The notes: generated by a model from the letters alone, not told the origin. A DNA stretch of 64,000 nt from Mytilus trossulus (GCF_036588685.1 NC_086378.1:28458001-28522000); one strand, 5' to 3'; shown: positions 9,001 through 30,269, counted from the first letter of the stretch. Numbers and translations: made by a program.

Positions 9001-12000
9001 GAAATAAACACTGATTACATGTTAAATCTAAGTTCCTTGTATTCTTTTGTTAAATGTTAAAGGTTGTATCTAGCTACTTAGAATTTTTAATAAGTAAGAA
9101 TACAAGTATAATTGATATAGACCATGTTATCATTTATGTTTATCTCTATGTACCTAACAAGTTTATAATGAAATGGTATCACAATCTTTTTAGCTGTTGC
9201 AAAATTGAGTAGCTTTCAATGTCAATGTACAAATTGTCTGATATGATATGTCAAAGTGTTAAATTATGTTGTACTGGTAGTTTATATTTATGAATATTGA
9301 AACATGTTAAGGAAAAAATCAGAGGACAAAAAAAGATTTTTGTTTTTAAGAATGTTAATGAAAAGGTACTTAAATTTTAAATCAACTTTAGAAATGCTCC
9401 ATTCATTTACATAGAAACAGGATTTTAGTTTTGAAACAATTTTCAGAAATTTTTTCTGTTTTTGGAAATCTGAAATTTTTCAATTGTCTAATGTCAACTG
9501 TCACTAAAAATCTTATTAGCTCAACATTTTATAGCTAAAATTTATATGTATTGTCTGAGCCTAACATTGCAATAATAGCTCCTCACACAAATGTTACTTG
9601 TTATTTAACTGACATGCTTCATTGATGCTAAAGCTATGACTAAGAAATACCATGGGCTATTTTCTTTGTCAATTTTAATTTTTTGAAAAAATGTCCCAGG
9701 GAATGAGATTTTTTATAAAATAAAAATGTTAATCTGATTCTTCTATTAAAAAAACCTGCAACTGAATTCAACATGTCTTGCTCATTTTAAAACAAGGTTT
9801 CAAAAATATGTATATGAGAGATTAGGGCCTGTGGATAGTGTTGAATACGCCTTATCGCTAATCCTGGCTGATCTGGCCCCTTGGAACTTTTGATGCACAC
9901 AACAATCACTTTTCCATTGTGGCATCAGACATTTTGTTTTATGATGTCAAAATTTTGTGAGAACCTGTGTGATTTCCAGTAATGGCGGACAAATAGCAAT
10001 AATGTGTATATGGACCTTTCATAGAAGTATGTTGGATTTTACAAGATATTTGGCTTGGGTAAATAAAAAAAGATCAATGAAAAAAATGACTTTCAAAGAG
10101 GAGAGGTAAAAAAAGGAAAGGAATAAATTATAAATCTTACTAAGAGTCTGAAAGGGGATGCTCCATGCATAAACTTTGTCTAGTTAAATGTATATTGATA
10201 GTTTACAAACAAACTCTGATAATTTGTAAAGTTAAGAGGAATTTTTGTCAGATTTAATGTTTTCACTATTCAGGAGAAGACAAGGGCTTATCATGCTCTA
10301 CGGGCAGCTGGACAGAATGAATCGGGCGTGAGTGATCAGCATTCAAGAATTTGCGATACTAATTATGATATTTTATATGCAATATTTGAATAAGTTTATA
10401 TTAACACAATAATATTTGCAACAATGGCTTGCCTATTTTTATTTCATGTTGGCATGCTTATGAAATAATTGGTAAATTTTACATGACGGGAAAACTGAAG
10501 TATATTCAAGAGAGACATCCCTTCATACAATCAAAATTTGCAGTCCTGAATTTTTTTACTTAGGCTATCGCTAAGCTTGACATGGTTTAAAAAAACACCT
10601 TTTTGTACTTGACCAATTGGCAATTGGAAGGAAATAGATTAATACAAGGCAACACTTGTATTTATGCGGTATTGTTTACGTTACTTTCCATAAAAAGGCC
10701 AGACCTTATCAATAGCCGTCTTTTGAGTGGTTTTAAATATAGAATATTTATTAATTATGTGTTCCTTTTGTCCATGAATTTCTATTCTTGTTCTGAAACT
10801 GCTGTTTCATTGTCAAAGCTTCTTTTAATATTTTCTTTTGCTTAGTCTATTGAACAATATGTCAGTGTACAAAAGTATCACTACAAAACAATGTGTCACA
10901 TGCCATCTTTTAGTCATATATGACCTTTGACCTTGAGATCAAATTGTTGATTTTTTGTTATGGCGTATTAAAGGGACTGGAACTGTTCATCTTTCCATAT
11001 ATCTTTTTAAAGGCATGTAGATGTAACATATAATAGGACAATGTATGGTATACAAGGGAGAACTTCATTTGACCTTACCTTGGATAGAATTTTACATCTT
11101 TTCACCATATAATAGGACAATATATGGTATACAAGGGAGAACATCATTTGACCTTACCTTGAATAGAATTTCACATCTTTTTACCAAGTTATGCAATTTC
11201 TATTTTTTTTTTCATGTTGATACATCAATATTCAACAAAAGGTTGAATCTTACACTTGACCTTCATAGAAAAGTTTTGTACTATAACAACCTAGACCTTC
11301 AGATTAAAGTTTTGTAATATGAAAAAGTTTGATATGTGACATGCAGGTTAAAAATTATGTTTTATATCTTAAATTTCAAATCTTACCTTCAGGTAAAATT
11401 ACAATTCATACTTATTTAAAATTTTATAAGGGAATATTTTTTTGTGGGCTAAAATACCTTACTCTTTGACATCCTTTTGAGTGATTTCACAAAAATGCAT
11501 TTTTTTGCCCCACCTACGATAGTAGCAGGGGATTATGTTTTCTGGTCCGTGGGTCCGTCTGTTTGTTCGTTCCTCCGTTCCTCCGTCTGTCCCGCTATAG
11601 GTTATAAAGTTTTTGGTCAAGGTTATTTTTGATGAATTTGAAGTCCAATCAATTTGAAACTTAGTACACATAATCCCTATGATATGATCTTTCTAATTTT
11701 AATACCAAATTAGAGTTTTTACCCCAATTTCACGGCCCACTTACAATAAAAAATGATAGCGGGAGTGGGGCATCCGTGTCCTATGAACACATTCTTGTTT
11801 GTACCTGTGTGTGTCAGTCATGAGTACTTCTATGAACCCTGTATCTGTAGATCAATTAGAAAGAGGCAACAACTAGTTGGTTTGTCAATATAAAAAGGAG
11901 TATTGAATAAATGATTAAATCAATGAATTAACACTTGGCATCAGCAGGGTAAATCTTAATTATCAATATTTATAATTTATTAGAACACAAGAAAATCTGC

Positions 12001-15000
12001 ATGACTTTTATTTCCTGGGTGGTTGATTTTTGAGGAGTGAAGTTTTTGAATTATTTTCATTTTCTGGAGTACACAGTTTATTATTTGAAAAAAAGTTTCT
12101 TTTCTCCCATCTTTGCTTTCTACGGATACTTTTGAAATAATTCATTTAGTTGCACATATTTTCTCTAACCATGTTTTTTTTTTAACTCCCCCCTTTTTTT
12201 CTGAAATATTATATTTATAATTTCTATAGTGTTAGAAAGGATTTGTATAGTATTAATATACGAATCCTGTTTGTTAGTTATTCAACTTGAGTTTTTAGAA
12301 GTAGATGGTCATTTAAGATGGAAGCTTAACAGCATTCAGTCAAGATTTATTTTACATAGAATAGTGTAGATATTACAATTTATTTTCATTTAAAGTTTTT
12401 CTAAATAATCAGCATGCAATTCTATATATATAAAAGGACTTGTAGAAACTAAAATTGGATTTAAGTTATCACAAAACTCTATTATTTGAATCAATTCAGT
12501 ACATGTTGTCAGGTTTGAAAGAAAATAATGTCCTTGTAGTTAGTCATGATATTTTATCTCTTTAATGGATGATTTGAATAGTTTGAAGAAAAAAGACCAA
12601 GTTTGTTATAGTCGTAGTCAGTGTTTGAATATTTATACTGCCAATGATTAAGAAACTTAAAATCTGGTAGGATGTTCATAAGCTTATCCCTATGTGACAT
12701 GTGAACTTTTTTTTGTTTATCTTATTCCATTAAATATTCAATAACTTTTACAAAATCTTCATAAAGCATCTACATGGCCACCAAACACAGAAATACCAGA
12801 TACTGTTGCATTGTATCAATTTTATGCAAAAAAGCCAGTTGAACTATCCAGCCTTCTTAGAGCTTCTAGTTTAGCATAGTATAAACATGTAGATTTATCC
12901 CAGTGTATTCTAGAAAAAACTTTTAAGTTAACAATTTTGATCAACTGTTGAAAAGAATTCCTGTTGGTTCTAAAGAAAATACAGAAGATTAATTTAAATT
13001 TTGTTAAGTGGTCCTTTCAATCTTTTCTTTTAAAACTTTATTTGATTGCATTTGTTTTCTACCAAATTTTCAGGCAGTAGTTGGAAATCGTGATGAGGAA
13101 AGAGAGAGGTTAAGAATGGAACTTAAAGCTGCTCAAGATGAACTGAACATGCTGAGGGAGATCCAAAGAAAAGTATCGTCAACATCTCCACCAGATATAG
13201 TGGCACCACTAGAAAGTGTCAAGCGGGAAAGACCTCAAAGTTTGGTGTCAGAGACATCAACGTTATCTTCAGATGATGGCACACCACAGCAAAGAGATGA
13301 AGGTAAGATTGAGAGATTGGTTTATGAAACTTTGCCATCTAAATATGTCTGTTAATTTCCTTTTTGTTATATAGTATTCTAAGCTATCTTGCACAATCAA
13401 AATAAGGAACAATATGTACAAAAATTTAGAAGGCTTATTTGAGTTCGGAAATCTTGAATTGTTAGTTTCATACTGGACTAATCTTTATTGGAATTCAAAA
13501 TTGGAATATGAAATTCAATATCTGAAAACGCTATAATACGAAAATCTTAAAAGTAATTTAGCTATATAGAAATTATATTAGAACAAATGGAAAACAATTG
13601 TCATATTCTTGACTGGGTACAAACATTTCTGTATAAGATATGCTCCTAGCCATAAGTTTGAAAAAACGAATGCTGCATAGAAATGTTATAAACTAGTTCA
13701 TGGAAAATTTATTAATTTAGTACTGTTGATTCATATTAATTTGTGGGGTGCAAATATTATTGATTTCATTTGTTTAGGCAAACAATGATTGAAGACGTTC
13801 AACACACTATAAAATTTACATAGTATTGTTTGCAGAAGTAAACAATTGCCTGAAAATACAATTTTCTACCAATCCACAATGGTAACAACGTAAATTAATG
13901 AATTCACAGTATTTTTTTTAACACCACATCAACAGTGATATATTGAAACCTCCCTCATCAGTTCAAAACCTTGTATGTCATAATTGTAATGCCATCTTAA
14001 CTCATAAACACAAAGCGAACACACTTGCAAACATAAACATCAAAGTAAAATAGCATATTTTTTTTTAAAGTTTATAAACAGGAAAGGTGCATTAATATCT
14101 TTATAAAAAAAAAAAACTACAGATGTATATGAATTATAGGTAAGTTGCAGTTATGAATTGTTTTGAGTCTGTATATCTTGAAGTGTCAAAGGTCATGAAT
14201 TAGCACCTTGATCATCCAAGGCACAATTTGTAAAAGTAAACCATCATAAGTCAAAGTACGTTCCTCAACACAGAGCCTTGGCTCATACCAAAAAGCAAGC
14301 TATAAAGGGTCAGTCACAAAAATGACATGTATCAATAAAGAACATCTTTATACTTACCCATTATTTCTAAGAATAATACTGACAATATTTTATTTCAGCT
14401 GAATCGGATAGTACTGAAGATATCCCAATGATGGAAGAATCCACAGAACTTATTGAACCGGAAGTTGCCATAGCAACTGAAATCCCTCAGTGCATAGACA
14501 CAAGTGACCTTCAAGAAATTGAACCCTCAGATGAAGAGACAATAGAGGATTTAGATGCTCCCCAAATTCCAGAAAATGATTTACTTCTCGATGCTGAAGT
14601 GCTGCATATATCTAATGTTCAAACAGAGTCAGAATTAGTTGAGGAAGTTCAAGATTTAGACTCATTATCTAACGACAATAAACAAGAATCAGATTCTTTA
14701 ACAGAAGAGGTTAAAAACAAGGACAATACTACAAATGAAAGCTGTGATATTCCTAAAGAATTCCACGACAGTGATCATAAGTCGCTGAATGACGATGTAT
14801 CGACTGATGTCGATGATACAAATTCTGACAGTGAAACAATATCAAATCAGCCAGATATAGAAACAGAAAGAAAAGAAGAAAACAAATCTGAACAAACAAC
14901 TGAAGAAAGTAGTGACAATGATTTTGAAAAAATTGAGAAATCAGAAATACCTAAATCAGATGATTCTGAAATGCATGGTGAAACACAGGATTCAAAATCT

Positions 15001-15228
15001 GAAAACATTTCAAATGAAACGGAAGAAAGTAAACAACAAATCCAAGAACAAAATGATAAATCTCAGGAAAATAATACTGTCACTGAAAGTGAAAGTGAAA
15101 GTAGACTCAATGGTGAGAGTAGCAAAATATCTGATACAGAAAAGTCAGAAGCTGACAATAATGAAAACATAGAAAAAAGTACTGATGCAAATATTAGTGA
15201 TAGCCAGACAATAGAACCTTCTTCATAG
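1..15228 (+). CDS. ARHGEF12: RGS-RhoGEF (LARG/PDZ-RhoGEF/RhoGEF2-like), 5'-partial multi-exon gene: join(<1..60,669..786,1410..1591,2009..2258,3591..3666,4761..4850,5828..5979,7507..7613,8253..8349,8789..8883,13074..13302,14399..15228)
   Basis: Spliced translation ALESLRSRQKKDSRL..RRLQLKDLIPTQMMRLTKYPLLIE..ILEYVNQAVKE..LDLTKHKLVYDGLLTW..LLEDVLVLLQKQDEKLVLK..FSPLLELSSVL..DKKAFFVV..QIYEL..KWIKLI matches the end of the DH domain and the PH domain of LARG/PDZ-RhoGEF. All introns are GT-AG with compatible phases. Invertebrates have one co-orthologue of ARHGEF1/11/12, so the symbol is approximate. Confidence 0.92.
669..786 (+). CDS. ARHGEF12: RhoGEF exon (DH domain CR3 motif)
   Basis: tag|AAESSNLMRRLQLKDLIPTQMMRLTKYPLLIESLMKYTS|gtaggt. 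Confidence 0.92.
1410..1591 (+). CDS. ARHGEF12: RhoGEF exon (DH C-terminal helix)
   Basis: tgcag|QSEEHTKLERALQCSKHILEYVNQAVKEYENHYKLEHLQRK..KMK|gtaagt. Confidence 0.92.
2009..2258 (+). CDS. ARHGEF12: RhoGEF exon (PH domain)
   Basis: tttcag|ELDLTKHKLVYDGLLTW..NSKAT|gtatgt; overlaps ORF 2036..2266. Confidence 0.93.
2354..2535. mobile_element. MITE
   Basis: Imperfect TIRs caattcgcttcagaatctaa / ttagattttgaaaaagcgaattg. Confidence 0.65.
3133..3303. repeat. 44-bp minisatellite, ~3.9 copies
   Basis: ataggtgtaaaccaaccctttcttRgaacaaagttcataagttc at 3133, 3177, 3221, 3265. Confidence 0.92.
3591..3666 (+). CDS. ARHGEF12: RhoGEF exon (PH domain)
   Basis: tttcag|DKKAFFVVAKSQIYELSAHTGEEQK|gtaagt. Confidence 0.9.
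4170..4457 (+). mobile_element. short Helentron-associated (HINE/pearl-like) element
   Basis: 5' T-run plus inverted repeat atgcccc..ggggcat, degenerate GTCC/GTCT microsatellite, 3' sub-TIR gtggggcat plus hairpin ending CTTGTT; second copy at 11500-11800. Confidence 0.72.
4761..4850 (+). CDS. ARHGEF12: RhoGEF exon (PH terminal helix with conserved Trp)
   Basis: ttgcag|WIKLIKESADSHKRNKSTANQLRPSTSPG|gtaaga. Confidence 0.88.
5430..5825. repeat. 33-bp minisatellite, 12 copies, abutting a splice acceptor
   Basis: Unit aaagggaccttcaaactgtatctgtttattaca; it produces the spurious periodic ORFs at 5384-6011. Confidence 0.95.
5828..5979 (+). CDS. ARHGEF12: RhoGEF exon (post-PH region)
   Basis: ttgcag|LEENKEPTRIF..AEPVLTPL|gtacca; phases 2/1 fit the neighbouring exons. 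Confidence 0.8.
7507..7613 (+). CDS. ARHGEF12: RhoGEF exon (coiled coil)
   Basis: ctag|ERARRLDEAVKENLEEKRRLVAQIINDVDERDRLEQ|gtcagt. Confidence 0.8.
8253..8349 (+). CDS. ARHGEF12: RhoGEF exon
   Basis: caacag|ISMSPETESLHNTIQESMEECSSFIIEICDRE|gtatgt; the 3' boundary is less certain because another same-phase donor lies near 8433. Confidence 0.65.
8789..8883 (+). CDS. ARHGEF12: RhoGEF exon
   Basis: tttcag|GLMQENIQMPIPMDKLKEMANRMNQILTNLL|gtaaga. Confidence 0.78.
9845..10009. mobile_element. MITE
   Basis: Imperfect TIRs atacgccttatcgcta / tagcaataatgtgtat. Confidence 0.5.
10274..10327 (+). CDS. candidate 54-nt symmetric cassette exon of the RhoGEF
   Basis: tttcactattcag|EKTRAYHALRAAGQNESG|gtgagt; phase 0/0, stop-free, GC-richer than its flanks. 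Confidence 0.5.
11027..11185. repeat. 79-bp tandem duplication
   Basis: catataataggacaat..acatctttt at 11027 and 11106. Confidence 0.85.
11500..11800 (+). mobile_element. short Helentron-associated (HINE/pearl-like) element
   Basis: Homologous to 4170-4457 over its whole length. Confidence 0.72.
13074..13302 (+). CDS. ARHGEF12: RhoGEF exon (C-terminal coiled coil)
   Basis: tttcag|AVVGNRDEERERLRMELKAAQDELNMLREIQRK..QRDE|gtaaga. Confidence 0.82.
14399..15228 (+). CDS. ARHGEF12: RhoGEF terminal exon, acidic low-complexity tail
   Basis: tttcag acceptor at 14398, phase 1, continuing into ORF 14428..15228 (E/D/S/N-rich) and ending TAG. Confidence 0.8.
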
Positions 15229-16245
15229 TCTTATGTCACATGATAGGGTCACATGCTGGTAATGTGTTTTGGTGCTTGTCATATGACACAAATTTTCTGT
15301 TGTTTGTCAATGCCACTTAAAGCCTTGGTATAACATTTTTTCCATTTTTCTGTTCTTGCTGAAAATGCTTCATTTAAGCCAAAACTCTAACTGTAAGTCT
15401 GGTTTCCTTAAATTGAACATGTTATGTGTTTGAATAACACAAATGACGTTTAATTGACTTGGAAAGAAAATTGTCAAAGAGATCTTCAGTAAGATGATAT
15501 AAAAAATATAAAGAAAAGCTTGCCATTAAGAATGGTGAACAAAACAATTACACCATACAAAATGTTTATAAGTATAACATAGTGCTACCAATCCATTTAT
15601 TATTATAATATATATTCATTTGGTTTTTGAAGAGTGCTTAACAATTAACATTTGTAGATATTGAATGGAAAATGTATTTGAAAATGGTCTCTATAAATGA
15701 GTTCATCGTAAAAACAAGAAATAAAACATGAGATCATAAAATCATTTAAACTTGCTTGACAGTGTTGACAAACAAACAGACAAAATTAAATGAATTGTCT
15801 CCCTTTTTTCCAAAATGATGATTATTTCCCTTTTTTCCAAAATGATGAGTTTTAGAAGGAGCTTATGTGTTTCTACTGATGCAATAGTTGATCATGTGAT
15901 AGATTTTATAAATACACGGATCAATCATACGCATGTCCTCATGAGGGACAGTTTTTGTTACTGTTTTACAAAGTTTGAATTTCTGTAGCATGGTCATTAT
16001 GTTTATCATATGTTTATTTATGTGTTAACAATTTTGACAATTATTTATCCATATGTATATTTGTATCATATGTACAATAGGAATTTCAGACTTGAGACTT
16101 TATTGTTATACTGTTTTAAAATTTCTTAGAAGTTACTCACTGTTAGCAATTTATGTGATTAATATGTCATGCAAACCCTATTTTCTCTTTTGTTTCAACA
16201 TCAATTATGAATTAATTTCACTTTAAAAAGATTGATTACTCTATA

Positions 16246-16392
16246 ACAGTGATGGATCCAGAACTTTTTATAAGGGGGTCCACTGACTGACTTAAGGGGG
16301 AGCTCCAGTCATGTTTCAGTGATTCCTTACAGAAACAACTTAATTTTTCTCAAAACAAGGGTTGGCCCTTGACCCTTCTGGATATGGCCATG
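16246..16392. mobile_element. degenerate MITE (CAGTGGCGGATCC-type ends) in the 3' UTR; internally deleted relative at ~5182-5231
   Basis: cagtgatggatccaga..tctggatatggccatg; cactggcggatccaga..aaatccgcctct. Confidence 0.5.
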
Positions 16393-18541
16393 AATATATA
16401 CCTTTATTTTAATGAATAAAGTGCATCAAATGAAGTTTTTGGGAGACTGGAAAATTTGGTCTGATTTCTTTTGTTATTTCAACCTGAGAATAATTTTTTT
16501 ATAAGTGTAAGTTTACTTATTTAAAAGTTTAACCTTACCATAGTGATACCCAGTTTCGATTTTGCTTTAAAAAATTATGATCTTTTCATCTGATTATTTC
16601 TCATAATGATATCATAGGTAGTTTAAAAGACGTTTTATATCATACATGAAAATAAAATCATTTCAACAACTTAATTTAAGTATATAAGTCTATTATTATA
16701 AAATCAAACTTTTTGAAGCATATATCCCTTTTGAATTTCTGTATCTTTAGTTTTGTTTGTGTGATTTTATTAAACCACTGCTAAAGATAATGATGGTAGT
16801 TTGTTTAAGACTAGTTGTACTGTTTGTCATGTGATTATTATTTTAATGTCTTTCATTTAAGGCCCAAACTTAGTTGAAAGTTTTCTATTGCAGTAGAATA
16901 AAGAACTTGTCTGAAGGTTGGCAAACGATTATGAAGGTTATTTATGTACAAAGCATTCTATTTGAAAATTTACCAAAATTAAAATCTTGCAATAGGAAAC
17001 ATTTTTTTTAGTCTAATGTTTTTTTTTTATATATTCAAAGATCTAACCTAGTTATGGTTGTGTTTTGATTAATGATATATCAAGTTATAATATTTTGCTA
17101 CAATTTTTCGTTAATTTCTAACTTTTATTTATTTATATCATGGATGATGATTTGCCCTAATGTCAGCTATTTCTTTTTTTGAGGTTTAAGAAATGGAAAA
17201 TTAGAAATCAGGATTAAATTTTTAAAGGTCACATTACTTTCAAATATTTATTTTCATAATTAACATTGTTCATGGATTTAAAAAAAACAGTCTTTTTGGT
17301 GGACAGTAGTTTTTTTGTAGATTTAACTGATTCTACTTAAAACATGTTAAAAGTGTATATTGAATTTGTACTCTGTTTAACTCATTTAAACATGCAGTAT
17401 TAAATTCAAACTACCAAATCCATAAAAATTAGTACCCCGGGAAAAACTTGGAATCAGCTATATATTTAAAATTAATTTCTTAAAACCTGGTTTGTTTACA
17501 AAATTTATGTTATTAGAAATACATAGCACAGTATATTCTGAATTTTTATTTTAGTTTTAATTAAATTATTTTTATAACTTAAAAATGTTACAACTATTTG
17601 GAAAAGGATATATATTTTATATATATTGAAACAAAACAAAGCTTTATATCGGAATCAAGCTGTTGAGAATACAAATTATTTTCGTGATAGTTTATTGACA
17701 TGGGAGGGACAACCTCTTAATTTTTTTTTAGAGTGAGTTTTATCATCCATTAATTGTGCAATATGTGACCAAACTTTATACATCATTATTTAATCATTAC
17801 ATTAACGCTACAGGGAGCACCTGTTTATAATACACAGGTATTACATTGGACAGGTAGTTCCATTTCTGATTCTGTTTGACTTGTTGTAATTCATTAAATG
17901 TTAATTATGAATTACAAAAAATACTGAAATTATGTTGATTTTCTTATCCATATTTAAAATTGTGCATAGTATGAAAGCTTTGATAATTAATCCTTACCAT
18001 TCATTAGCCTTGAACAAACAATATAATCTAGTTCTTTATATTATGTAAACTGGAATAGCTCTATACCTTTAGCTAGAATGTAGAGTTAATGAAAGGTTTT
18101 TATACTTTAAAAACAAGTACTTAACATCATTTAACAAAACAATGTCAATCAAAATTATATTTCCCAATATAACATTGGTTTTAACATGTTCTTACAACTA
18201 TTTCATAAGATAATGTTTTTTAAGCTTTTTCCCAGTCAGTATTTTGACTTTTTCAAACATTCTTACTTTAATTGATTCTCCAGTCATTTGATTGGTTGAA
18301 GAAATGTTCTAGTGTAAATTTTTGCTGCTGTTAAGTGTTTAGAGTAGAATATGACTAAGGTCTACTCAAATATATGACTAATGTCTTCTCAAAAATATAT
18401 TGAAAGGTCTACTCAAATATATGACTAAAGGTTTTCTCTGATGATGCAAGGTTAAATAATGTATATGATTTGTTAGACGTCTCTCTTTGTACAGTTGTAT
18501 ATAGAAATAATATTATTGTACAGACAAAGAAATAATGGAAA

Positions 18542-18547
18542 AATAAA
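18542..18547 (+). terminator. probable polyadenylation signal of the RhoGEF (3' UTR ~15229-18570)
   Basis: AATAAA preceded by TGTA motifs and followed by a T-rich tract; other AATAAA hexamers upstream are alternatives. Confidence 0.35.
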
Positions 18548-20058
18548 ATACAAATATTAAGTAAAACAGGCTTTTTATTGATACTTCTAATAATGAACAG
18601 GATTCTTTAATTAATCTGTTTACTGTAGAATGGGTTATGTCTACATTAATGTTTAAATTTCGTGATTGCAATGGCATAAATGTTTGTAAAGTTTTATTTT
18701 TGTCCCGTATTGTGAATAATATTAAGTAGGTGGTCTAGTTTTAGTGGCCAGGTCAAACCAAAAACGTTAAAAATTGATATTTCCTGCTTCTCTATCCAGC
18801 ATGCAGCTTTAAGGTTTAATAGCAAAGACTGGTCATTCCCAGTCAGAATAAAGTGTAAGGATAGGGTGATGCATCTTTCAGTGAACTGTGTTACCTTTTG
18901 TACTGGCACATTAAACATTAGATTTGGCCTATAGGTACACAGTCTAGTACAAAGCAGGGTTAATATTCATATTTCATCCTGAGTATTAATGCTGTTAATA
19001 TGTATATCAAGAAAGGAGTCATATTAGAGCATCATTTAGAATTTTGAGTGGTGCACCTGAGATACCCTGCCCCCTCCTCCTCCCCCTAGTTTTTTGTGGG
19101 GTTCGTGTTGCTCAATCTTTAGTTATCTATGTTGTGTTTTGTGTACTGTTGTGTGTCTTATTAGCCATGGCATTTCAGTTTATTTTTGACTTATGAGTTT
19201 GAATGTTCATTTGATATATTTTGCCCTCATTTAAGAAACGTGTAGATATTTTTCACCTGAAGAACTATTGTCCTCAGTGTCTGATAAGAAAACACAATAA
19301 ATACAGTACGGAAAAAGTTCTGACATCTAAAAACAGAAACTTAATAAGTCAAACTTGATTCGGATTTGGTATACTAGTATTAAAAAAACTGCAGCTCTGA
19401 TGAACTTTCCACCAAATAGAAAAACATGTACGGATTTTAAATAAATAATTAATTTTAAAACAATACTGTGAAACGACTGTGAGGTGACCTGGTAGCATAA
19501 TGAAACCACGAAATTCATATTGCAAAAGCAAGCTAGTTTGAAAACACGAAAATGGGTGGTCATGTATCAAATTATTTGCAAACAATACATTAACAGTCAC
19601 AACCACTCCTTTAACTCCTTAAATGAACAAAACTTGTAAATGTTTTCAGTCTAAAAATGCCCAGCTTGACATGGAATATCAACAAAACAGAAAAGATTTC
19701 TTACAATCTGTGATCTTTCTAGGATTTTAATGCATCTTGTAGTAAAACATCTTGTAGTAAAACACAAGAAATCAAAATTTTCCGGATTTTTTAGGTCTTT
19801 TATCCTATTTGCTTTAAAGAGTTTCAAATGATTATTTTTAATCTTTTACTCTCTTTCTTGTATTTATTTTCTAGCTAAAGAAGTTTTCCTCTGTACTAAA
19901 ATTCTTTCCCAATCACCAATTTCTTCACTTCCCATGATACAATGTTTTGGTGAAATTGAAATGACAAATGTTTTCCAAAGGGTTTTCCATACATCGAGGA
20001 CCAGAAAGTCATCAGGATTTCTAGCATTTTATTTTCACTGAACCACTCGATGAGCATT

Positions 20059-20233
20059 GAGGGGGATAGGACCTTTATCGGGACTCCGGGATCGGGTGTT
20101 TTTAAGCTCGGGATTTCGGGATTGACCTTTTCGGGATCCGGGATTTTTTTTCAACTTTCGGGACTTCGGGACTTCGGGATTTCGTGTTTTTAAGCCCTGG
20201 ATTTCGGGATTAGGACCCCTGCTACTCCCTCTC
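20059..20233. mobile_element. GC-rich MITE with 6-bp TSD
   Basis: AGCATT directly repeated at 20053-20058 and 20234-20239; ends GAGGGGGATAG / CTACTCCCTCTC; internal (TT)CGGGA(T) repeats. Confidence 0.7.
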
Positions 20234-21294
20234 AGCATTTGATGCAAATGACTGTGTAATGTAGATTTGAGACTCATAGACAGAACTGCTGGAAGACAGC
20301 TCACTGCTTACTTTAATTTGTTGTTTTCTGTATGAAAAATACAAAATGTTTGGAAACACATTACTTTTATATTTCTTGGTGAGGGTTTCACTCTTGTCGT
20401 CCAGTAAAATTAAAAACGTATACCAAATAAACTACCAGTAAAATCTTCAGAAACGCATTTTTCTAGATTTGCCTTCACCAGGAACGATAACACTTCAAAA
20501 GTTGCCATACCTAACACGTGGATAACTTTAAGATTGAAAGGATTAAAGGTAACGGTAGTATACCTCTATTCAATAGCGAAAACAAATTCGGGTCCCAAAC
20601 CAAAAGCGCGGGTAACATCAACTATTCGAGGAAAACATCGTAATAACCAAAACAATAATCTCCTACAAAAATAAAAAGTCGACATACATAGAAAAGGACT
20701 TTCTGATAACAACTTTCATATTCCCGAATTGGTACAGAACATTTAAATAAACACTCATCTGAATTTTACCATCATCAGGGAAGCTCACTCAGCAAACGTT
20801 GAAAGAAAATGCCGTATGACTAATAAAGTGGATAGCTTTATGACTAAAAAGAGTCGAGAGAATAACCAAACTAGTTCAAGGTCAATATTGCCTGAGGGGG
20901 TAGGCACCTAAGTTTTTCTAAATGATTTCCTAATTCATCAACGGACAATAAGTTTCACAAAGTATGTTATAAATCAAATCAGTGTAATAAGTTTAAAATT
21001 TCGTTAATTTCATTTCTCTTAAATGGGACGAGGGAAGTATTTTTTTCTAAAATTAGCAAAACGCTACAATGCTAACTCCTGCTTTCCTTTAATTGTGCAG
21101 ATTCTGAAGGCCATGTCATTTCACAATAACAATTGCTAAAAAGTTTTACAAAAAGCGATGAATCAAAATTACAATCCGATCATTTTCTTTTTTAGAATTT
21201 CACTACAAAGGTGTGAACAAGTGCACTTTAATGAAACTAATAATTGCCATCCAAATCGATTTTTTTTAAGGATGCTTCATTAAATTGAAATACG

Positions 21295-21580
21295 ACAATA
21301 ACAATCAAAACCAAGGAGTAAACAAAGACTCATAAAACCAAGACATTTACATCAACAGTTACAAATAATAAATAAGAAACAACACGAACTCCACTAAAAA
21401 CCGGGAGTGAAATCAGGTACTCCGAAAGGGTAAGCATTTTCTGTACCGTATAGGGCAACCGTCGTGTTATTTCTTTTTTCACTTCAGTAATGATGAAAGA
21501 TTATTATGATTGAGGAAGAATATCAGATATGAATTCTGACACACTTTTGTCATAATGGCAAGTCAGCTCATGATGTGGAC
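21295..21580 (-). mobile_element. 3' end of a Penelope-like element (RT C-terminus plus 3' UTR)
   Basis: Minus strand reads HHELTCHYDKSVSEFISDILPQS*, followed by the tgcttaccctt.cggag.acctgatttcactccc motif shared with 44250-44285 and 46030-46245. Confidence 0.5.
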
Positions 21581-21837
21581 TTAAATTATAATCCTGGTAC
21601 CTTTGATAACTATCAATGAAAATAAGATGCTGGAAATCCAGATGAATTTCTGATCCCCTATAGTTATACGATGATGACTGATGTACCCATATTTTGACTA
21701 TTTTATTAATTGTGACTGTTTATTTAAAAGAAACGCGCGTCTGGCATACTAAATTATAATCCTGGTACCTTTGATAACTATTGACATATAAAAACGTTCC
21801 GAATATTGTTAATTCAAGTAGGTAGCATTTTGTAAAT

Positions 21838-22341
21838 AAAGACAACAGTAGTATACCGATGTTCAAAACTTCTAAATTGGTAGATAACAAAAAACAAAAC
21901 CAGGTCATACACCAAAACCGAGGGAAACGCATTAAATACAAGGAAATGACGACACATCATTAAAATGTAACACACACAGAAACGAACTAAGCATTAGACA
22001 AAATCCGATGCGAATAACAAATATAACATCAAAACTAATTAAATGAATTTGGGATAGAAAAGTACCGTGACACCTCTTATAATAATGTGAATTCACACTC
22101 AATTATAAGTGGAAACAAACGACACAAAAGAAACACAACGTTTAAATGTAACACACTCAGAAACGAACTATAATATAACATATGACAATGACCATATTCC
22201 TGACTTGGTACAGTACATTTAAAAAAAAAAATGGTGGGTTGAACCTGGTTTTGAGGCATGCTAAACCTCCCTTTTTATGGCCATGTACATGATGTAAAAT
22301 ATAACATTAAAATGACAACATAACATAACAGGACTACAATA
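21838..22341. repeat. dispersed repeat, second copy at 37982-38530
   Basis: caacagtagtataccg.tgttcaaaact..accgagggaaacgcatt..caggactacaatac is collinear in both copies. Confidence 0.8.
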
Positions 22342-22411
22342 CCGGAAACGAAATATGTATACCTACACAAGCCTACACAAGAAATTCATTGATTTCTTTC
22401 GTACAAATTAA

Positions 22412-22760
22412 TAATGTGGATATTTTATTTAAATATGTTATTAATCATGGTTGAAATCGCAGGGCAGTGATTGCATTGCAATCGTATCTGGTAACTATGT
22501 ACATTGTTTATATCTCCTGCGCCTCTACATCATAACTTGTTCATATTGACCAATCAGGATGCAGCATAGGTACCGTTGATATGTCTGGCATTTCATATCA
22601 ACCAATCAAGAGCTAGTATTCATATTTCCCGCTTCATTATTTAGCCAATCAGTTTGTAGGTCAATTAACATCGTCTGGCATCATCGTCAGGTTCAGCATT
22701 CAAAATAATAACTTGCAGCAGCAAACACCTTGTTTAAACTAAGGCTAAAGATTTTTATTC
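22412..22760 (+). repeat. Ngaro split direct repeat A1 (349 bp)
   Basis: taatgtggatatttt..aaagatttttattc, identical by eye to 27362-27710. Confidence 0.95.
22550..22649 (+). promoter_or_regulatory. three CCAAT boxes in repeat A (putative element promoter)
   Basis: gaCCAATcag 22550, aaCCAATcaa 22602, agCCAATcag 22645, all fitting the NF-Y consensus RRCCAATCR. Confidence 0.5.
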
Positions 22761-23180
22761 TCATACTTATTAATTATAAGTTTAACAACCGAAAGTGGAC
22801 GTTCTATACAGTACGATGGAAAGCTTTCATTTACAGTACTATGTGATGAATTTACGATACTAACGAAAGTTTGATATCATCTGTGAAAAAACTTCTTGAT
22901 AGGAATACGGTGATCAATCCGAGGACGTCAAGATAATCTCGCGTGGTACAGCATAATAGTTACCGATGAAACAGTTTGGAAATTCGCAGAATTGTATCGC
23001 ATGTGCAAACCAGAACTTTTAAAGTTGATGAGCATTAAGCTGGAACGTTCTAGACATCCCAATGGATAATACCATACTTAGCGTAACTCCGGAAGCTGAC
23101 CTGGAAATCATGTTTTTTGTGCAGTAATCAACGACTGGATTTATTAACTTTGCTGTGATATTGTGTAGTCAGTTAGCAAG

Positions 23181-24299
23181 ATGACTTTTGAAGGCTCAAG
23201 CTCCAAAACCATGACAGACGTGGAACGGGTTTTGACCTGGGCAGATGCAAAAAAGCTTAGCGAGGCAACGGCAAATGCAGTGATAAGTCTAGGATTTGAC
23301 TCAATGGAAGCTTTGGCGCTTTTAGAAGGCGAAGATCTTCAGAAGACCAAAATACCGATTGGACAACAGAAGCTACTCCTGAAGAGTATAAGGCAGTCAT
23401 TTAAAGCAGAAACTGAAAACGCGCCAAAAGGCAGTAATGGTGGACTTCCGGCATGTCCGACTTCAGAAGATGCGTGCGCACCGGAAATTACAGACATCCA
23501 AGATGGCGGCAACAATAACAATAACAACCTAACATCCGGTTTGACAGACACATGTGTTGGCAATGTTTTAAACCAATTACAACAGCAGCAAGCAGCATCC
23601 GGTGTCATTAATCAAGGTAGTGCTTGTTTTAATAACATTCAGTCCTGGCAGGACCCACAAATATTTATTAAGTCATTAGGAAATAACAAAACTAACTCTA
23701 ATTATTTAGACATTGTTGATTTTGTCATGTTATCAGGGGTAAACAGTGGGGATAACGATGAACGGATTGTATCCGAATCAGGTTCAGGTCAGTTAATTTT
23801 AAAATCTGGACCTTCTAAACCTAAGCTTGAATCGTTAAATGTAAGCCAATGGTCAATGGCAAACTTGGCAATTTTATATAAGTTATTAGAAGAGGGTCAT
23901 CTAGTCCAGAATAACATACTGGACTACCTATCATATGCCACTCGTACGTACCAGTTGTTTCTTTCACATGATGTTACATCAGTTTTCTTTTATGATAGAG
24001 AGTATCGCAGGTTGCAAAAGTTCAGATGGGGAACTGATGTACCACATATTCAAACTGTGTTTTTAAAATCAAAGGGTAGTAATTCTACCAAGTTTTCCAA
24101 ACCTCCAGTGTCTACCTCTAAGGGTTTCAAACCATTTTCTTCTCACACAGCTGGTGGGAAAGAAATATGTAAAAAGTTCAACTCCAGGCTAGGTTGTTCA
24201 CTTAGTGGGTGCAAATTTGAACATGTGTGTAATGTCCCAGGTTGTGGACAAAGACACTCTGGCTCAGGGCATCAGTCTAGCTTTCCAAAAAACGGATAG
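23181..24299 (+). CDS. gag: Ngaro ORF1 Gag-like protein (N-terminal SAM-like domain, C-terminal CCCH plus Cys/His knuckle)
   Basis: 372 aa with ATG start; YDREYRRLQ..RW motif; C-x8-C-x4-C-x3-H followed by C-x4-C-x3-H at the C-terminus. Confidence 0.88.
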   Translation: MTFEGSSSKTMTDVERVLTWADAKKLSEATANAVISLGFDSMEALALLEGEDLQKTKIPIGQQKLLLKSIRQSFKAETENAPKGSNGGLPACPTSEDACAPEITDIQDGGNNNNNNLTSGLTDTCVGNVLNQLQQQQAASGVINQGSACFNNIQSWQDPQIFIKSLGNNKTNSNYLDIVDFVMLSGVNSGDNDERIVSESGSGQLILKSGPSKPKLESLNVSQWSMANLAILYKLLEEGHLVQNNILDYLSYATRTYQLFLSHDVTSVFFYDREYRRLQKFRWGTDVPHIQTVFLKSKGSNSTKFSKPPVSTSKGFKPFSSHTAGGKEICKKFNSRLGCSLSGCKFEHVCNVPGCGQRHSGSGHQSSFPKNG

Positions 24300-25933
24300 G
24301 CCCAGTAAAACCTCTGCGTGACCTTCACCTTGATGCTTGGGTTACTGAACTAAAGTATGACTTTGACAAGGAATACTTACTTCATGGTATAGAATTTGGG
24401 TTTGACATTGTGACCTCAGCAGCTAATGAGTTACCATCAGGAATAGTTGGTAAAAACCACCCATCCGCTTCACCTAACAACCCCCTTTACGAAAAAGCTC
24501 ATTTGCAAATTCTAAATGAAATAGAATGTGGCAACTATGTTTTTGCTGAAAAAACTCCCCGCATAATAAGTCCATTAGCAGTTATACCTAAACCAGATGG
24601 GGGAGTTCGTATTATTCATGATTGTAGTAGACCAGAGGGGTCTGCAGTAAACTCCTTTGTTGGCGAAATAGAAAAACAAAGATTTCAAACTTTAGATGAA
24701 GCATCAAAATTAGTTACTCCTAACTGTTATATGGCTAAAGTAGATTTAAAAACAGCTTATAGATCGGTGAACCTTAGCTCACAAAGTCAAGAAGTTACTG
24801 GTTTAAAATGGACCTTCCCTGATGGAACAGAATATACTTTTTATGATACAAAGCTTCCATTTGGATCAAAATTGGCACCCCATATTTTTCATAGGCTATC
24901 CCAAGCTGTCCGTCGTATGATGTCACGCAGAGGTTTTACTATCATCGCATACTTAGATGATTTTCTTATTTGTGAAACAACAAAGCAGCGTTGTATTCAA
25001 GCATTGAACATTTTACTCGCCCTTCTTCGCAAGTTGGGTTTTATGATAAATTGGTCAAAAGTGGTTGACCCCACCACTAAATTGACTTTCTTAGGCATAG
25101 ACATTGACTCTACTGCAATGGAGTTAAGGCTTCCAGGGGAAAAGCTTTCCCTACTTAAGCATGAATTGGCAGAATTTAGTAAGCGAAAAAGAGCATCAAA
25201 AAAGCAATTGCAATCTATAGCAGGCAAACTTAATTGGGCATCAGCAGTGGTTCATGGCGGGAGAGTATTCCTTCGCAGAATTATTGACGCGATTACCCCT
25301 TTAAAGCATGATTGGCATAAGGCAATCCTCCATGGCGAAATATGGCATGATATTGAATGGTGGAAAAAATTCCTAGAGACCTTTAATGGAAAGTCCCTCA
25401 TTTTAGAAAAGATCCCCTTGTCATCAGTATACACAGATGCATGCAAGGAGGGGGGAGGGGGTTTCTTTGGTTATGACTGGTTTTATACGAATTGGGAAAA
25501 TGATTTCCCTGTAGTGAAAAATCTCCATATCAATGAGCTTGAGGCTCTTGCAGTAGTCTTGGCAGCGCAAAGATGGGGGAAAGATTGGGAAAATAAAAAA
25601 GTTGTTGTTTTCTCAGACAATATGACCACTGTTGCATGCTTGAATAAGTGCACTTCACGCAGCAAAATTTTGATGTCTTACCTAAGGGGCTTGTTTTGGC
25701 TCTCTGCAACATATAATTTTCATATAACAGCCGTTCATGTGCCAGGGAAAGAAAATATTATGGCAGACTTCATATCTAGGTTACATGAGCCAAAGGCGTT
25801 TTACCAATTTATGAATTTTTATCTTCCCAAACCACTGTTTGTAAGGCACTTGGAATCCCATATGTCTAACCAAGCCCTATCCTATCTTTTATGTAGGCAT
25901 TCCAAGTGCAGGGCAGGTGCAGGAGTTGGATAG
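24281..25933 (+). CDS. pol: Ngaro ORF2 reverse transcriptase-RNase H; frame open from 24281 with no usable ATG (probable -1 frameshift from gag)
   Basis: Motifs YLLHGIEFGFDI, KPDGGVRIIHD, AKVDLKTAY, LPFG, AYLDDFL, TFLGI; RNase H YTDAC, INELE, SDN, NIMADFISR. Confidence 0.93.
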   Translation, partial: LSKKRIGPVKPLRDLHLDAWVTELKYDFDKEYLLHGIEFGFDIVTSAANELPSGIVGKNHPSASPNNPLYEKAHLQILNEIECGNYVFAEKTPRIISPLAVIPKPDGGVRIIHDCSRPEGSAVNSFVGEIEKQRFQTLDEASKLVTPNCYMAKVDLKTAYRSVNLSSQSQEVTGLKWTFPDGTEYTFYDTKLPFGSKLAPHIFHRLSQAVRRMMSRRGFTIIAYLDDFLICETTKQRCIQALNILLALLRKLGFMINWSKVVDPTTKLTFLGIDIDSTAMELRLPGEKLSLLKHELAEFSKRKRASKKQLQSIAGKLNWASAVVHGGRVFLRRIIDAITPLKHDWHKAILHGEIWHDIEWWKKFLETFNGKSLILEKIPLSSVYTDACKEGGGGFFGYDWFYTNWENDFPVVKNLHINELEALAVVLAAQRWGKDWENKKVVVFSDNMTTVACLNKCTSRSKILMSYLRGLFWLSATYNFHITAVHVPGKENIMADFISRLHEPKAFYQFMNFYLPKPLFVRHLESHMSNQALSYLLCRHSKCRAGAGVG

Positions 25934-26888
25934 CCTGGTTTTGTTTTTCCAAAGCAGGATGTTTGCAGACTCAACAAAAAAGACATATATGTTGTATTTT
26001 AGAAGTTATGAATCCTTTTGCAGAGGTTTATTAATTCCTATGGTCCCAATTAGCAAAGACAATTTGGCCAGATATATTGTTTTTCTAACGCAAAGGCTTT
26101 GTTATAACTCAGTTGTCAATTATTTAAATATTGTGCGCCTCCTGCATGAAGAGGCTGAGTTACCTTACCCTATTGATACACATTTTGTCAAAGGTGTCTT
26201 AAAAGGGGTTAAAAGAGTTCTAGGGGCTGAAAAACGCCCCAAATTACCCATAACTCCTAAAATACTGTCTGGCATTTTTACCACTATAGACTTAAATGAA
26301 AGTTTGGATATAACTTTTTGGGCAGCTTGCTTAGTAGCATTTTTTTCCTTTTTCAGGAAATCAAACCTTTTTACACCATCTTTACAGGAATTTAATCCTG
26401 ATCGGCATTTAAATAGGGCATCTGTTAAGTTTTCGAAGGAGGGGGCCACTTTAACACTCAGGAAAACAAAGACCATACAAAATAGGGAAAGAGCTCTCGA
26501 AGTACCTTTACCTATAATTCCAGGTTCCCCCTTCTGTCCTTGTCAAGCTTTGAAACTATCGTTTGATATATGTCCTTCCACTCATAATTTGGTGTCAGCT
26601 TTTATGTTTTCCTCCAAGTCCAAGTTAATGCCCCTTACATATAATGGGTTTTTAGCCAGATTGAAACAGTCTTTAAAATCTCTGGGATATGACAGTTCTA
26701 AGTACTCCGGGCACAGTTTTCGTAGAGGCGGGGCAACTTTTGCATTAGAATGTGGCGTCCCTTCTGAAATTATCCAAACACAGGGGGATTGGAAGAGTGA
26801 TGCATACAAAAATTATTTAGATCCTTCTTTCACTAACCGACAGACTGTCATGAATGTCTTTGCAAAAGCACTTCCCAAAATGGTATAA
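25917..26888 (+). CDS. Ngaro ORF3 tyrosine recombinase (phage integrase family)
   Basis: Catalytic residues R (FFRKSNL), K (KTKT), HxxR (GHSFRRGGAT), W (GDWKS), Y (AYKNY). The track start is GTG; the first ATG is at 25959. Confidence 0.95.
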   Translation: MQELDSLVLFFQSRMFADSTKKTYMLYFRSYESFCRGLLIPMVPISKDNLARYIVFLTQRLCYNSVVNYLNIVRLLHEEAELPYPIDTHFVKGVLKGVKRVLGAEKRPKLPITPKILSGIFTTIDLNESLDITFWAACLVAFFSFFRKSNLFTPSLQEFNPDRHLNRASVKFSKEGATLTLRKTKTIQNRERALEVPLPIIPGSPFCPCQALKLSFDICPSTHNLVSAFMFSSKSKLMPLTYNGFLARLKQSLKSLGYDSSKYSGHSFRRGGATFALECGVPSEIIQTQGDWKSDAYKNYLDPSFTNRQTVMNVFAKALPKMV

Positions 26889-27006
26889 AATGGTTTTCTA
26901 ATCATAAATTTTTTAATAACATTGATATCTAAGTTTTTATTATTCTGTGTACAAATATTTATATACTATCCCCTACCTCTAAATACAGGTTTGGATTTCT
27001 ATTTTG

Positions 27007-27367
27007 GAGAACCACAGTTTTTATTACACATCATTTATCTTTTGTATTCATGCATTACTTACATTTTGTATTTGCCTTAATTCATTTAGCATTATCTTCA
27101 ATTATTGTATAATTGAAATAATTACATGCATACTTAATAAACTGTGGTTAGTTTTCCCAAACCTGTCTTTGTTCAAATATATAACCAACACTGCCTTATG
27201 TTCTATTTGGCCGCTGAATCCTTCGGGTGTATCCAAACTTGATATGGGACGTTATATAAGTCATACCATATCAAGCGTTGGCAGGGAGGCTGAAAAGAGG
27301 CAGTGTTTAACATCATTGGCAAAGGGGGGAAGGGTGGGTCCTTATTTTCATAACATAAGATTAATGT
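27007..27367 (+). repeat. Ngaro split direct repeat B1 (361 bp)
   Basis: gagaaccacag..cataagattaatgt, identical by eye to 27870-28230. Confidence 0.95.
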
Positions 27368-27710
27368 GGATATTTTATTTAAATATGTTATTAATCATGG
27401 TTGAAATCGCAGGGCAGTGATTGCATTGCAATCGTATCTGGTAACTATGTACATTGTTTATATCTCCTGCGCCTCTACATCATAACTTGTTCATATTGAC
27501 CAATCAGGATGCAGCATAGGTACCGTTGATATGTCTGGCATTTCATATCAACCAATCAAGAGCTAGTATTCATATTTCCCGCTTCATTATTTAGCCAATC
27601 AGTTTGTAGGTCAATTAACATCGTCTGGCATCATCGTCAGGTTCAGCATTCAAAATAATAACTTGCAGCAGCAAACACCTTGTTTAAACTAAGGCTAAAG
27701 ATTTTTATTC
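27362..27710 (+). repeat. Ngaro split direct repeat A2
   Basis: Copy of A1; overlaps B1 by TAATGT. Confidence 0.95.
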
Positions 27711-27869
27711 CCACCCTCCCAACCCTCATTCATGTATTTATGTAATGGCAATCAGTTCATGAACTGTCTTTTAAGTTTGTATCTTGTCATGTTTATTTTT
27801 TTTTTTGTACTGTTTATTATATAATATTGTATTCATTGTATTTTCATGTGTAGTTTAGTCTTGATGTTT

Positions 27870-28230
27870 GAGAACCACAGTTTTTATTACACATCATTTA
27901 TCTTTTGTATTCATGCATTACTTACATTTTGTATTTGCCTTAATTCATTTAGCATTATCTTCAATTATTGTATAATTGAAATAATTACATGCATACTTAA
28001 TAAACTGTGGTTAGTTTTCCCAAACCTGTCTTTGTTCAAATATATAACCAACACTGCCTTATGTTCTATTTGGCCGCTGAATCCTTCGGGTGTATCCAAA
28101 CTTGATATGGGACGTTATATAAGTCATACCATATCAAGCGTTGGCAGGGAGGCTGAAAAGAGGCAGTGTTTAACATCATTGGCAAAGGGGGGAAGGGTGG
28201 GTCCTTATTTTCATAACATAAGATTAATGT
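27870..28230 (+). repeat. Ngaro split direct repeat B2
   Basis: Copy of B1; similarity ends after taatgt at 28230. Confidence 0.95.
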
Positions 28231-30269
28231 CAAGATTTGGACTGTTATTTGCACAGACTGATATTCTTATTGTTAAAAACATTTACTATCTTCTATCATC
28301 TTATATTTCAGAGAATACAGGGAGAAAACTAAAATTTTAAACAAATGGTAATGTTTCTGATTAACATTACGATGACATACAGTGGTCAAACAAATGCAGA
28401 TTACACTTTATAAAGCTATTGACATTTTGTTTATATCAACCTGAAGACACACCTTTGATAACATTTCAAGCATATGCTTATGAAAACTATCTCATTGATG
28501 GTTGTGTTCTCGATAACTATGTTCACACTTCCGTGAAGTGTAAAACATTATAAGTGGAATAATTTAGTTTAGAGGTTTTTTTTAATTTCAAAAGCCGTGT
28601 AAGAACTATGTAGTACAACAAGTAAATCACACAGAGTTTAAAACCAAAGGAAATCAATTTGTGTCGTGAAATTCTTAAGACATCTAGGTTTAAATTCCTT
28701 ATGGTAAAGTTTACCTCAGATGATTGTTTTCAAAATTATCAAGCTAGTGGTCACGCAGATGGTAGCAAGACTGTGTAGGTGTATATTTATCTCTATGGAA
28801 GTATGATAATCTCGGTATTATAATTTAAAAATTGTTATACGATGATGACTGATGTACCCATTTTGACTATTTTATTTATTGTGTCTGTTTAGTTAACGCA
28901 TCAATGTAAATATAACGGAATTTGATGAGACTGTTATCAAAGTTAGAGGATTACCGCTATAAAACCAGGTTTAATCCTCCATTTTCTACATTTGGAAATC
29001 CCTGTAACAAGTCAGGAATATGACAGTACTTGATTATTCGTTTTTAATGCGTTTTGTTATTTGATTTTGCCATGTTATTATGGACTTTCCGAATTGAAGT
29101 TCAGTATTTTTGTGATTTTACTTTTTACAACTGTTAGTAATCATATACAATTTGTCAACTGGTACCAAGTTTAGTATCTGCACCATGTGCTCCACACTTT
29201 GTTGTCTGTCGTCGTCAGGGTTTTTACCATAGGAGTCGAGTGTTGATGGTTGGTTGTGATGTTCAACTTTTGTGGTAACTTCTGTATTCGTTTTTATGTG
29301 TATGTTTGTATTACCATTATCACCTCATATATATATATACCCTGCACTTGGCAATATTCAATTCCAGCCTGTCAAATATTAAATATTCTTTGGTATTTTG
29401 AAGTTCGTTATACAATCAAGTAATTTCACACCTAATTATTAGCAGCACCTTTTTATTGAGCAGGTGATTTTTAAGATTATGTAAAAAATGACCATTTTAT
29501 AAATTAACTTTTAAATCGAATCGATTTAAGATTCTTTCATATTTCCTTAACACTTGATAAAACGTGACAAAAAAATCATAAAAATACCAGGCTTACAATT
29601 AACAGTTTCACCTTTGTATCTAGGCCAAATAATAGAATGAAGATGTAGAGCATTTAGAGCCAACATTTAAAAACAATCTAATGAACATAAAAATAAAGAG
29701 ATGTAGTATCATTGCGTAATGACAAATAACCACTGACGTGCTAACTGCTGGGTTGGTGAAAACATCGAAAGCGGAGGGTAAAAAACACAACAGTTTCAGG
29801 ATGTATGTGAAACTCCTTAAATTGTAAGGAATTATACAGAATCAATGAAAATACTGCCTGTTTAAACAATTCAATTGTCAATAAAGGTTTGAAAATGTTC
29901 TTTTCCTATCTAGAATAAAAGGTTTCACTAAATCTTGACTGATATAACGGTTTGAATTTTTTTTTGACATTGTAAGAAATAAAAGACATGTTTATAAGAC
30001 AAATATTGCAAATTACCGTTATGAAGTTTGCTTGATCCAGTTTGGATTATTTCTACTGTAACACAATCGTCATAAACCTACATAAACAGAGGAAATTTTA
30101 ATCACAATTTTGTTTTATTCCAGAAAAACCACATTTTGTTTTTATTTTAATCCTGTCAGACACAGATGAGATATATATTATAACCACTGTTTAGATAACA
30201 TGTCCATATTAATAACAATTAGAGTGCTATTGGAAGAATAAATAAACTCAACATATATAGGAGAATTAA

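Follow-up and report, generated by a model that had tools for sequence, protein, structure and literature searches.

Splicing probably joins the tyrosine recombinase of a Ngaro-type retrotransposon to the N-terminus of Gag in the mussel Mytilus trossulus

In a Ngaro-type tyrosine-recombinase (YR) retrotransposon of Mytilus trossulus, located at 22412-28230 (5.8 kb) and containing a predicted intron, we consider it highly probable that removal of this intron (23617-25896) gives an mRNA for a fusion between residues 1-146 of Gag and the recombinase. Positions are counted from the first letter of the window, that is, the whole stretch of 64,000 nucleotides that was analyzed (GCF_036588685.1 NC_086378.1:28458001-28522000), and exon boundaries are marked by a slash. 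The features of the element are the following:

22412..22761, + strand: split direct repeat A1, the 5' end of the element, starting with TAATGT (end coordinate approximate)
23169-24299, + strand: gag ORF (first ATG at 23181), with a SAM-like N-terminus, a low-complexity linker, a conserved core and a Cys/His finger
23217..23405, + strand: five-helix SAM-like domain of Gag, retained in the spliced product (AlphaFold mean pLDDT 87.9)
23614..23622, + strand: 5' splice site AAG/GTAGTG, phase 1, at the end of the linker (junction contig, gene models P0044 and P0131, homologues)
23617..25896, + strand: GT..AG intron of 2280 nt, which takes out the Gag core and nearly all of pol (RNA contig and gene models)
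24281..25933, + strand: pol ORF (RT, RNase H)
24287..24293, + strand: slippery heptamer A AAA AAC in the gag frame, candidate site of a -1 frameshift to pol
25845-26888, + strand: YR ORF
25866..25870, + strand: candidate branch point CTAAC, not conserved
25875..25896, + strand: pyrimidine tract and TAG (25894-25896), the 3' splice site, with phase-1 entry to YR
25897..26888, + strand: YR exon, 329 codons past the split codon, with a Cre-like fold
27007..27367, + strand: split direct repeat B1
27362..27711, + strand: split direct repeat A2
27870..28230, + strand: split direct repeat B2, the 3' end of the element, its last letters being TAATGT

Judged by the structure of its sequence, the element is an ordinary Ngaro-type member: its repeats run in the order A1 ... 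B1 A2 B2 without inverted terminal repeats, and gag, RT/RNase H and YR follow one another on a single strand, a layout described in passages of PMC4157794, PMC6681497 and PMC9210276. Gag was assigned by position, Cys/His finger and homology, a Pfam search giving no match, and pol ends about 50 codons past the last RNase H motif, with no Pfam match to a methyltransferase after RNase H at E 0.1, which sets the element apart from PAT-like and DIRS-like ones. Four further near-complete copies, 93-100% identical, lie in the same genome (G000), and Mytilus mussels are the source of the named homologues at 99% identity.

Several side observations concern the element, its relatives and its surroundings. 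The copy in the window misses 9 bases (3 codons) at 24017, in the gag core, which are present in runs X1, X2, X6 and X9 and in close genomic copies. Its leader (22412-23180) holds 14 ATGs ahead of the gag start and an acceptor-like site at 23124 (score 15.0); the leader may thus contain an intron, or transcription may start later, and contigs of X1 and X2 traverse the leader unspliced. A multi-copy subfamily (L101:4990-5250, L102:4740-5000, L104:5600-5900) has kept gag, pol, donor and acceptor and lost YR about 25 bases past the acceptor. The copies L063, L052 and L053 have internal deletions between intact terminal repeats; in the first of them, a tandem array of 506 bases replaces gag-pol and the acceptor reads AAG. 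Two loci (L079:6426-6986 and L078:6501-7046) carry a fourth ORF 3' of YR that matches a GDSL-like hydrolase (PF13472). Upstream of the element lies a host RhoGEF-like gene, assigned by eye, on the + strand (1985-15228 and about 15229-18600), whose last intron (13303-14398) is spliced and whose long 3' part is covered by contigs; a GPCR-like gene is found on the - strand at 39446-41072.

The original prediction, made from the sequence of the window, had pointed to CTAAC (25866-25870) and TAG (25894-25896) inside the end of pol, to a YR frame open from 25845, to a possible start at ATG 25959, and to two donor candidates in gag, namely AAG/GTAGTG (23616/23617) and CAG/GTCAGT (23787/23788), the hexamer GTCAGT of the latter being shared with a host donor at 7614. 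All these positions are correct, the acceptor and both donors are in phase 1, and either junction leaves the frame open as far as the stop of YR. By itself the motif is not rare: CTAAC followed by a tract and YAG occurs twice on the + strand of the window, and when the 3.7-kb coding part was shuffled 500 times with its dinucleotides preserved, 17% of the shuffles contained one or more occurrences (mean 0.18), so that outside support is required; what raises it above chance is its position, its phase, its conservation and the junction contig described below.

The conservation of the acceptor was assessed with a score based on pyrimidines, a YAG and the absence of a nearby AG, applied 20-130 nt ahead of the conserved YR start. 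Within an own-genome sample made of 40 of the 129 YR matches in G000 and the window element, a phase-1 acceptor was chosen in 39 of 41 loci, both exceptions being decayed copies. With one representative per family, the best acceptor falls in phase 1 in 20/20 own families (mean score 14.6), whereas no phase exceeded 14/20 in 25 control windows, where the means were 11.1-14.2. This rule had been written after the own-genome sequences were viewed, and it was applied unchanged to an outside set, drawn from the best 80 of 201 metagenome relatives, of which 14 were dropped for a late match start, a short flank or an early stop and the 66 that were kept formed 57 families when clustered at 75% identity. 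There, a phase-1 acceptor was found in 53/57 families with a mean score of 14.9, when 13 control windows gave at most 53% and means of 10.9-13.3. The expectation that CTAAC..YAG would be kept before YR is consequently borne out for the acceptor and its phase but not for CTAAC itself, which occurs in 1/20 own families only, with the looser YTRAY in 8/20. The last RNase H motif extends over the acceptor in L068-L072, where coding could therefore contribute to the pyrimidine tract, but in many other families the acceptor lies 3' of the pol stop.

These results bear on how the recombinase has been thought to be made. According to Poulter and Butler 2015, as cited in PMC13003380, YR lies in -1 relative to pol, which it overlaps, and is probably reached by a programmed frameshift, and one could hold that YR is mainly made in this published manner, by frameshift or readthrough at the pol end into a Gag-Pol-YR protein, the splice being minor noise. 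The pol and YR frames were compared in the 65 of 77 families with an intact pol ORF, and some of what was found agrees with such a scheme: 24 families overlap in -1, 8 have a stop separating both ORFs within one frame, the pol-YR overlap of the present element measures about 86 nt, and unspliced contigs predominate. However, 20 families overlap in +1, this element included, for which a -1 overlap with a heptamer is not what is found at the pol/YR junction; 13 have no overlap at all; and a slippery heptamer in the pol frame occurs in 0/24 of the -1 overlaps. The frame relation between pol and YR moreover requires 23 changes on a YR tree of 64 families (L060 left out; bootstrap not fully settled), whereas 61 of the 65 families have a phase-1 acceptor, a constancy that frameshifting leaves unexplained. 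We thus regard this manner of making YR as unlikely.

By contrast, the gag/pol junction shows clear recoding signals in 13/13 own families examined (gag stops at loci L048, L049, L050, L056, L061, L065, L068-L070, L072, L078 and L079): three have A AAA AAC in frame, and the ten others TGA-CTA or TGA-CTG. We take A AAA AAC to be a frameshift signal and TGA-CTA/TGA-CTG a readthrough signal, and TGA followed by CTA or CTG at the gag end, with the frame continuing into pol, is likely to act in this way. The idea that the element would use both frameshifting and splicing is supported as to splicing, when the putative frameshift to pol rests on the in-frame heptamer, after which the predicted hairpin in the window is not better than in shuffles (z -0.21).

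As regards the protein, the splice opens a fused frame of 475 residues from ATG 23181, and the likely product is predicted to be a 475-aa fusion between the SAM-like Gag(1-146) and YR. The predicted structure of the YR exon is Cre-like (mean pLDDT 88.3; TM 0.76; against Tre/Cre, Z 23.9 and rmsd 3.3 over 292 aligned residues), and its catalytic set, R153, K191, H272, R275, W298 and Y303, is complete, as in a tyrosine recombinase. On the Gag side, the N-terminus best resembles SAM domains (Z 9.9, rmsd 1.8, 64 aligned), which occupy the top 11 rows of the fold list (Z 8.9-9.9), with RAD51 N-terminal domains tying at 8.9; the best Foldseek hit was not significant (E 0.12) and Pfam gave no match for this N-terminus.

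The structure of the YR exon also bears on the possibility that the acceptor is used but that YR is translated alone, starting at ATG 25959, its RNA being either spliced or initiated internally. This ATG coincides with the start of the Pfam SAM_5 match, and 6/20 own families have a Met at most 15 codons after the acceptor. Yet a predicted helix (residues 4-19, 25908-25955) lies upstream of ATG 25959 and would be lost, residues 11-20 of YR being within the range aligned to Tre/Cre from its residue 25; the Met is not conserved; and 10 ATGs precede it from the gag start. The first Met after the acceptor comes at residue 33 or later in 13/20 own families (L060 being counted at its second-ranked acceptor, and L053 and L060 having an ATG just before the acceptor), and no in-frame Met is found between the upstream stop and the conserved YR start in 36/57 outside families. 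With this helix lost and a Met late or missing in many families, a stand-alone YR, which moreover would not need a constant acceptor phase, is very improbable, and the start at ATG 25959 envisaged in the original prediction finds no favor here.

Turning to the donor, a phase-1 AG/GTA is found 6-12 codons ahead of an SW..PQ motif in 4/4 subfamilies of the window's clade, whose gags are 41-52% identical and whose linkers are otherwise unconserved; a decayed copy at 81% has CG/GT at the homologous place. The other proposed donor, 23787, lacks its GT in L044, L046, L101 and L102 and shows no junction in the RNA contigs of the four-run mapping described below, and we no longer retain it. On a broader scale, 22 alignable Gag ORFs (4 own, 18 outside) were chosen and the 40 codons ahead of the core anchor were searched: the best donor there is in phase 1 in 19/22, scores at least 6.5 in 18/22 and is the top of the whole gag in 14/22, when nine control windows reach a donor of at least 6.5 in no more than 9/21. 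The phase of the donor alone is weak evidence because glycine codons favor phase-1 GT, whose density is 0.46 per 100 codons in gag and 0.36 in pol, and control windows give phase 1 in up to 16/20. Within its own gag, the donor of the element at 23616 ranks 3rd of 69. That Gag types not alignable to this core have such a donor as well is a guess. In the gag of L191, at the position homologous to the donor, 7 codons ahead of the core anchor, G-GCAAGT forms a possible GC donor, which was scored as a miss.

In RNA, the junction was sought in 8 of 24 listed sequencing runs, taken as assembled contigs, the kind of each run being guessed. One contig of run X9 joins 23616 to 25897, skipping exactly 2280 letters with GT..AG ends; it has a depth of 2 and 30 letters on its short side, one under the 31-letter bridging rule, and 3 letters fit either side. 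The same joint was not seen in X1, X2 and X6, so that 1/4 runs shows it; the table of joints from this four-run mapping of the element (X1, X2, X6, X9) has two rows, and a contig of X1 passes both splice sites unspliced. In a second mapping (12900-28300), the host intron at 13303-14398 is spliced in three of four runs (X10, X15, X12), and X9 is probably RNA since X10, from the same study, splices this intron; in X20, the host splice was not seen and the run may be DNA. Among 15 of the 68 joints of this second mapping, in which repeats prevail, the element junction is neither repeated nor excluded. As to genomic copies already bearing the junction, none was found among 40 of 56 scored candidates, beside more than 900 unscored YR candidates, and no spliced copy among 30 YR loci. 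The intron has the attributes of the U2 type, that is, GT..AG ends, a pyrimidine tract and removal in RNA, and the junction ending at 25897, by which the prediction was to be judged, is found weakly in RNA (a single contig) and strongly through conservation.

Two other contigs were noted at the donor. Another contig of X9, at depth 14.9, has a T>A change at 23618, the second base of the donor, so that a copy devoid of the splice site must be either transcribed or present in that run. A contig of X2 departs from the element at the donor (23616-23618) and continues in frame into a septin P-loop-like sequence, which has no match in G000 at 1 mismatch; the nearest exon start in G000 (C6:11011661-11011769; L095, L099) follows a phase-1 AG and matches 25/30 letters. 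This contig may reflect the splicing of the element donor to a host septin exon in another animal, and it was dropped as evidence of splicing, the sole similar exon start matching at only these 25 letters.

The same junction is already held, unremarked, in public gene models. Indeed, six RefSeq-type mussel models under four species names join a Gag N-terminus to YR: P0044 (XP_063402490.1) and P0131 (XP_071165966.1) consist of Gag 1-146 and the YR exon with the exact junction of the element; P0004 (XP_076108317.1) and P0133 (XP_063434478.1) join the Gag of family L044 to the YR of L044 at homologous sites, the L044 donor and acceptor having been chosen before these two models were seen; and P0136 (XP_052101984.1) and P0014 (XP_052069783.1) show the same Gag-YR build in a third family, known from the models only. 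Models of this type are usually built with RNA-seq input, and in both families that could be checked they use a donor that does not have the highest score (3rd of 69 in this element, 10th of 68 in L044), a choice that is less likely to come from an unguided predictor. Predictors can nonetheless invent donors, as the same acceptors are paired with donors within pol in P0008 and P0011, and P0044 is not independent of the family of this element, its sequence matching L041, the frameshifted copy at C10. When the N-terminus of Gag from family L079 served as the query, 5 matches were obtained, none of them an evident YR fusion as judged by length and Pfam. A spliced Gag-Pol, as in P0123 (donor 23787 to an AG at the start of pol), was rejected for this element, its acceptor scoring 6.5 versus 15.5.

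That there is no real splice, the contig having arisen by a template switch or from a genomic copy with a deletion, and ab initio prediction having produced the gene models as artefacts, would fit with a depth of 2, a 3-letter microhomology, a single run and the other donors picked by other predictors, but is hardly credible given that the contig has its GT..AG ends at both sites named beforehand, that the scored candidates and YR loci yielded no such genomic copy, and that an artefact cannot produce 53/57 phase-1 acceptors in unrelated samples. Contig, models and conservation together support the 3' splice site at 25896/25897, the donor at 23616 and the SAM-like Gag-YR fusion that had been predicted.

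Splicing of the Gag N-terminus to YR would give the following picture. The unspliced RNA would serve as the genome and would also be translated to Gag and, with a -1 shift of frame at A AAA AAC, to Gag-Pol; the weak donor would hold the spliced Gag-N/YR RNA to a minor share; the Gag(1-146)-YR fusion would be the working recombinase; and its Gag N-terminus would bring the recombinase to the Gag particle or to the cDNA. We tentatively extend this picture, as a conjecture that may well fail, to animal Ngaro-like elements in general: YR would be the second exon of a Gag-N/YR protein, this being the sole route to the enzyme, and Gag-N a self-association tag delivering YR to Gag particles and cDNA. 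Under this extension, the Gag-N module would be SAM-like here and a coiled-coil or something else in sister clades, Gag would come directly from the same transcript that yields Gag-Pol through recoding and Gag-N-YR through splicing, the latter process acting as a switch on integration that the host could control.

How YR is produced and delivered in YR retrotransposons has so far been a guess, the published one being a frameshift. If the splice model were true, the annotated YR ORFs would be incomplete across the whole superfamily, reconstitution and recombinase assays would gain a defined protein to express, and both the free variation of the pol/YR overlap and the start-less YR frames would be explained. 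Moreover, an intron in an element that replicates through RNA would imply that full-length RNA must escape splicing, which would offer the host a control point.

With Ngaro-like elements (order DIRS), the present one shares the A1 ... B1 A2 B2 repeats, gag, RT-RNase H and YR on one strand and the absence of a methyltransferase match, as well as the GDSL/SGNH hydrolase ORF that some of its sister families carry; it differs in that YR is apparently a second exon here, when in print, in the part of PMC13003380 concerned, it is reached by programmed frameshift. A literature search outside supplements, the Poulter reviews and Repbase did not reveal, in the portions of text covered, any description of YR splicing in Ngaro or DIRS elements (PMC7192593, PMC9341512, PMC6681497, PMC4157794, PMC9210276, PMC3783388, PMC13003380), and portions of the literature on Xenopus, fungal, nematode and kinetoplastid YR elements make no mention of element splicing. 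The closest known scheme appears to be the SD' RNA of MLV (P50/P60), in which, according to passages of PMC10496198, a gag-internal donor is joined to an acceptor at the pol end and the N-terminus of Gag is fused to the end of integrase; the gag donor, the pol-end acceptor and the fusion of Gag-N to an integration enzyme are common to both. However, P50 is described there as accessory and holds only the last 116 residues of the DDE integrase, the working integrase being made in Gag-Pol, whereas the second exon of the present element comprises the entire recombinase, for which no alternative route is evident in many families. Foamy viruses, in the sections of PMC7828637 concerned, likewise express an enzyme gene from a spliced subgenomic RNA with a suboptimal site, but their Pol is separate from Gag and includes RT, which here lies within the intron. 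Finally, in the Ty1/Copia element EVD of Arabidopsis, a conserved alternative splice sets a protein ratio according to parts of PMC5580714, with the difference that its short Gag splice makes Gag only, through an early end, when the splice described here would make the integration enzyme; foamy virus pol and the Copia short Gag are thus looser parallels than MLV SD'.
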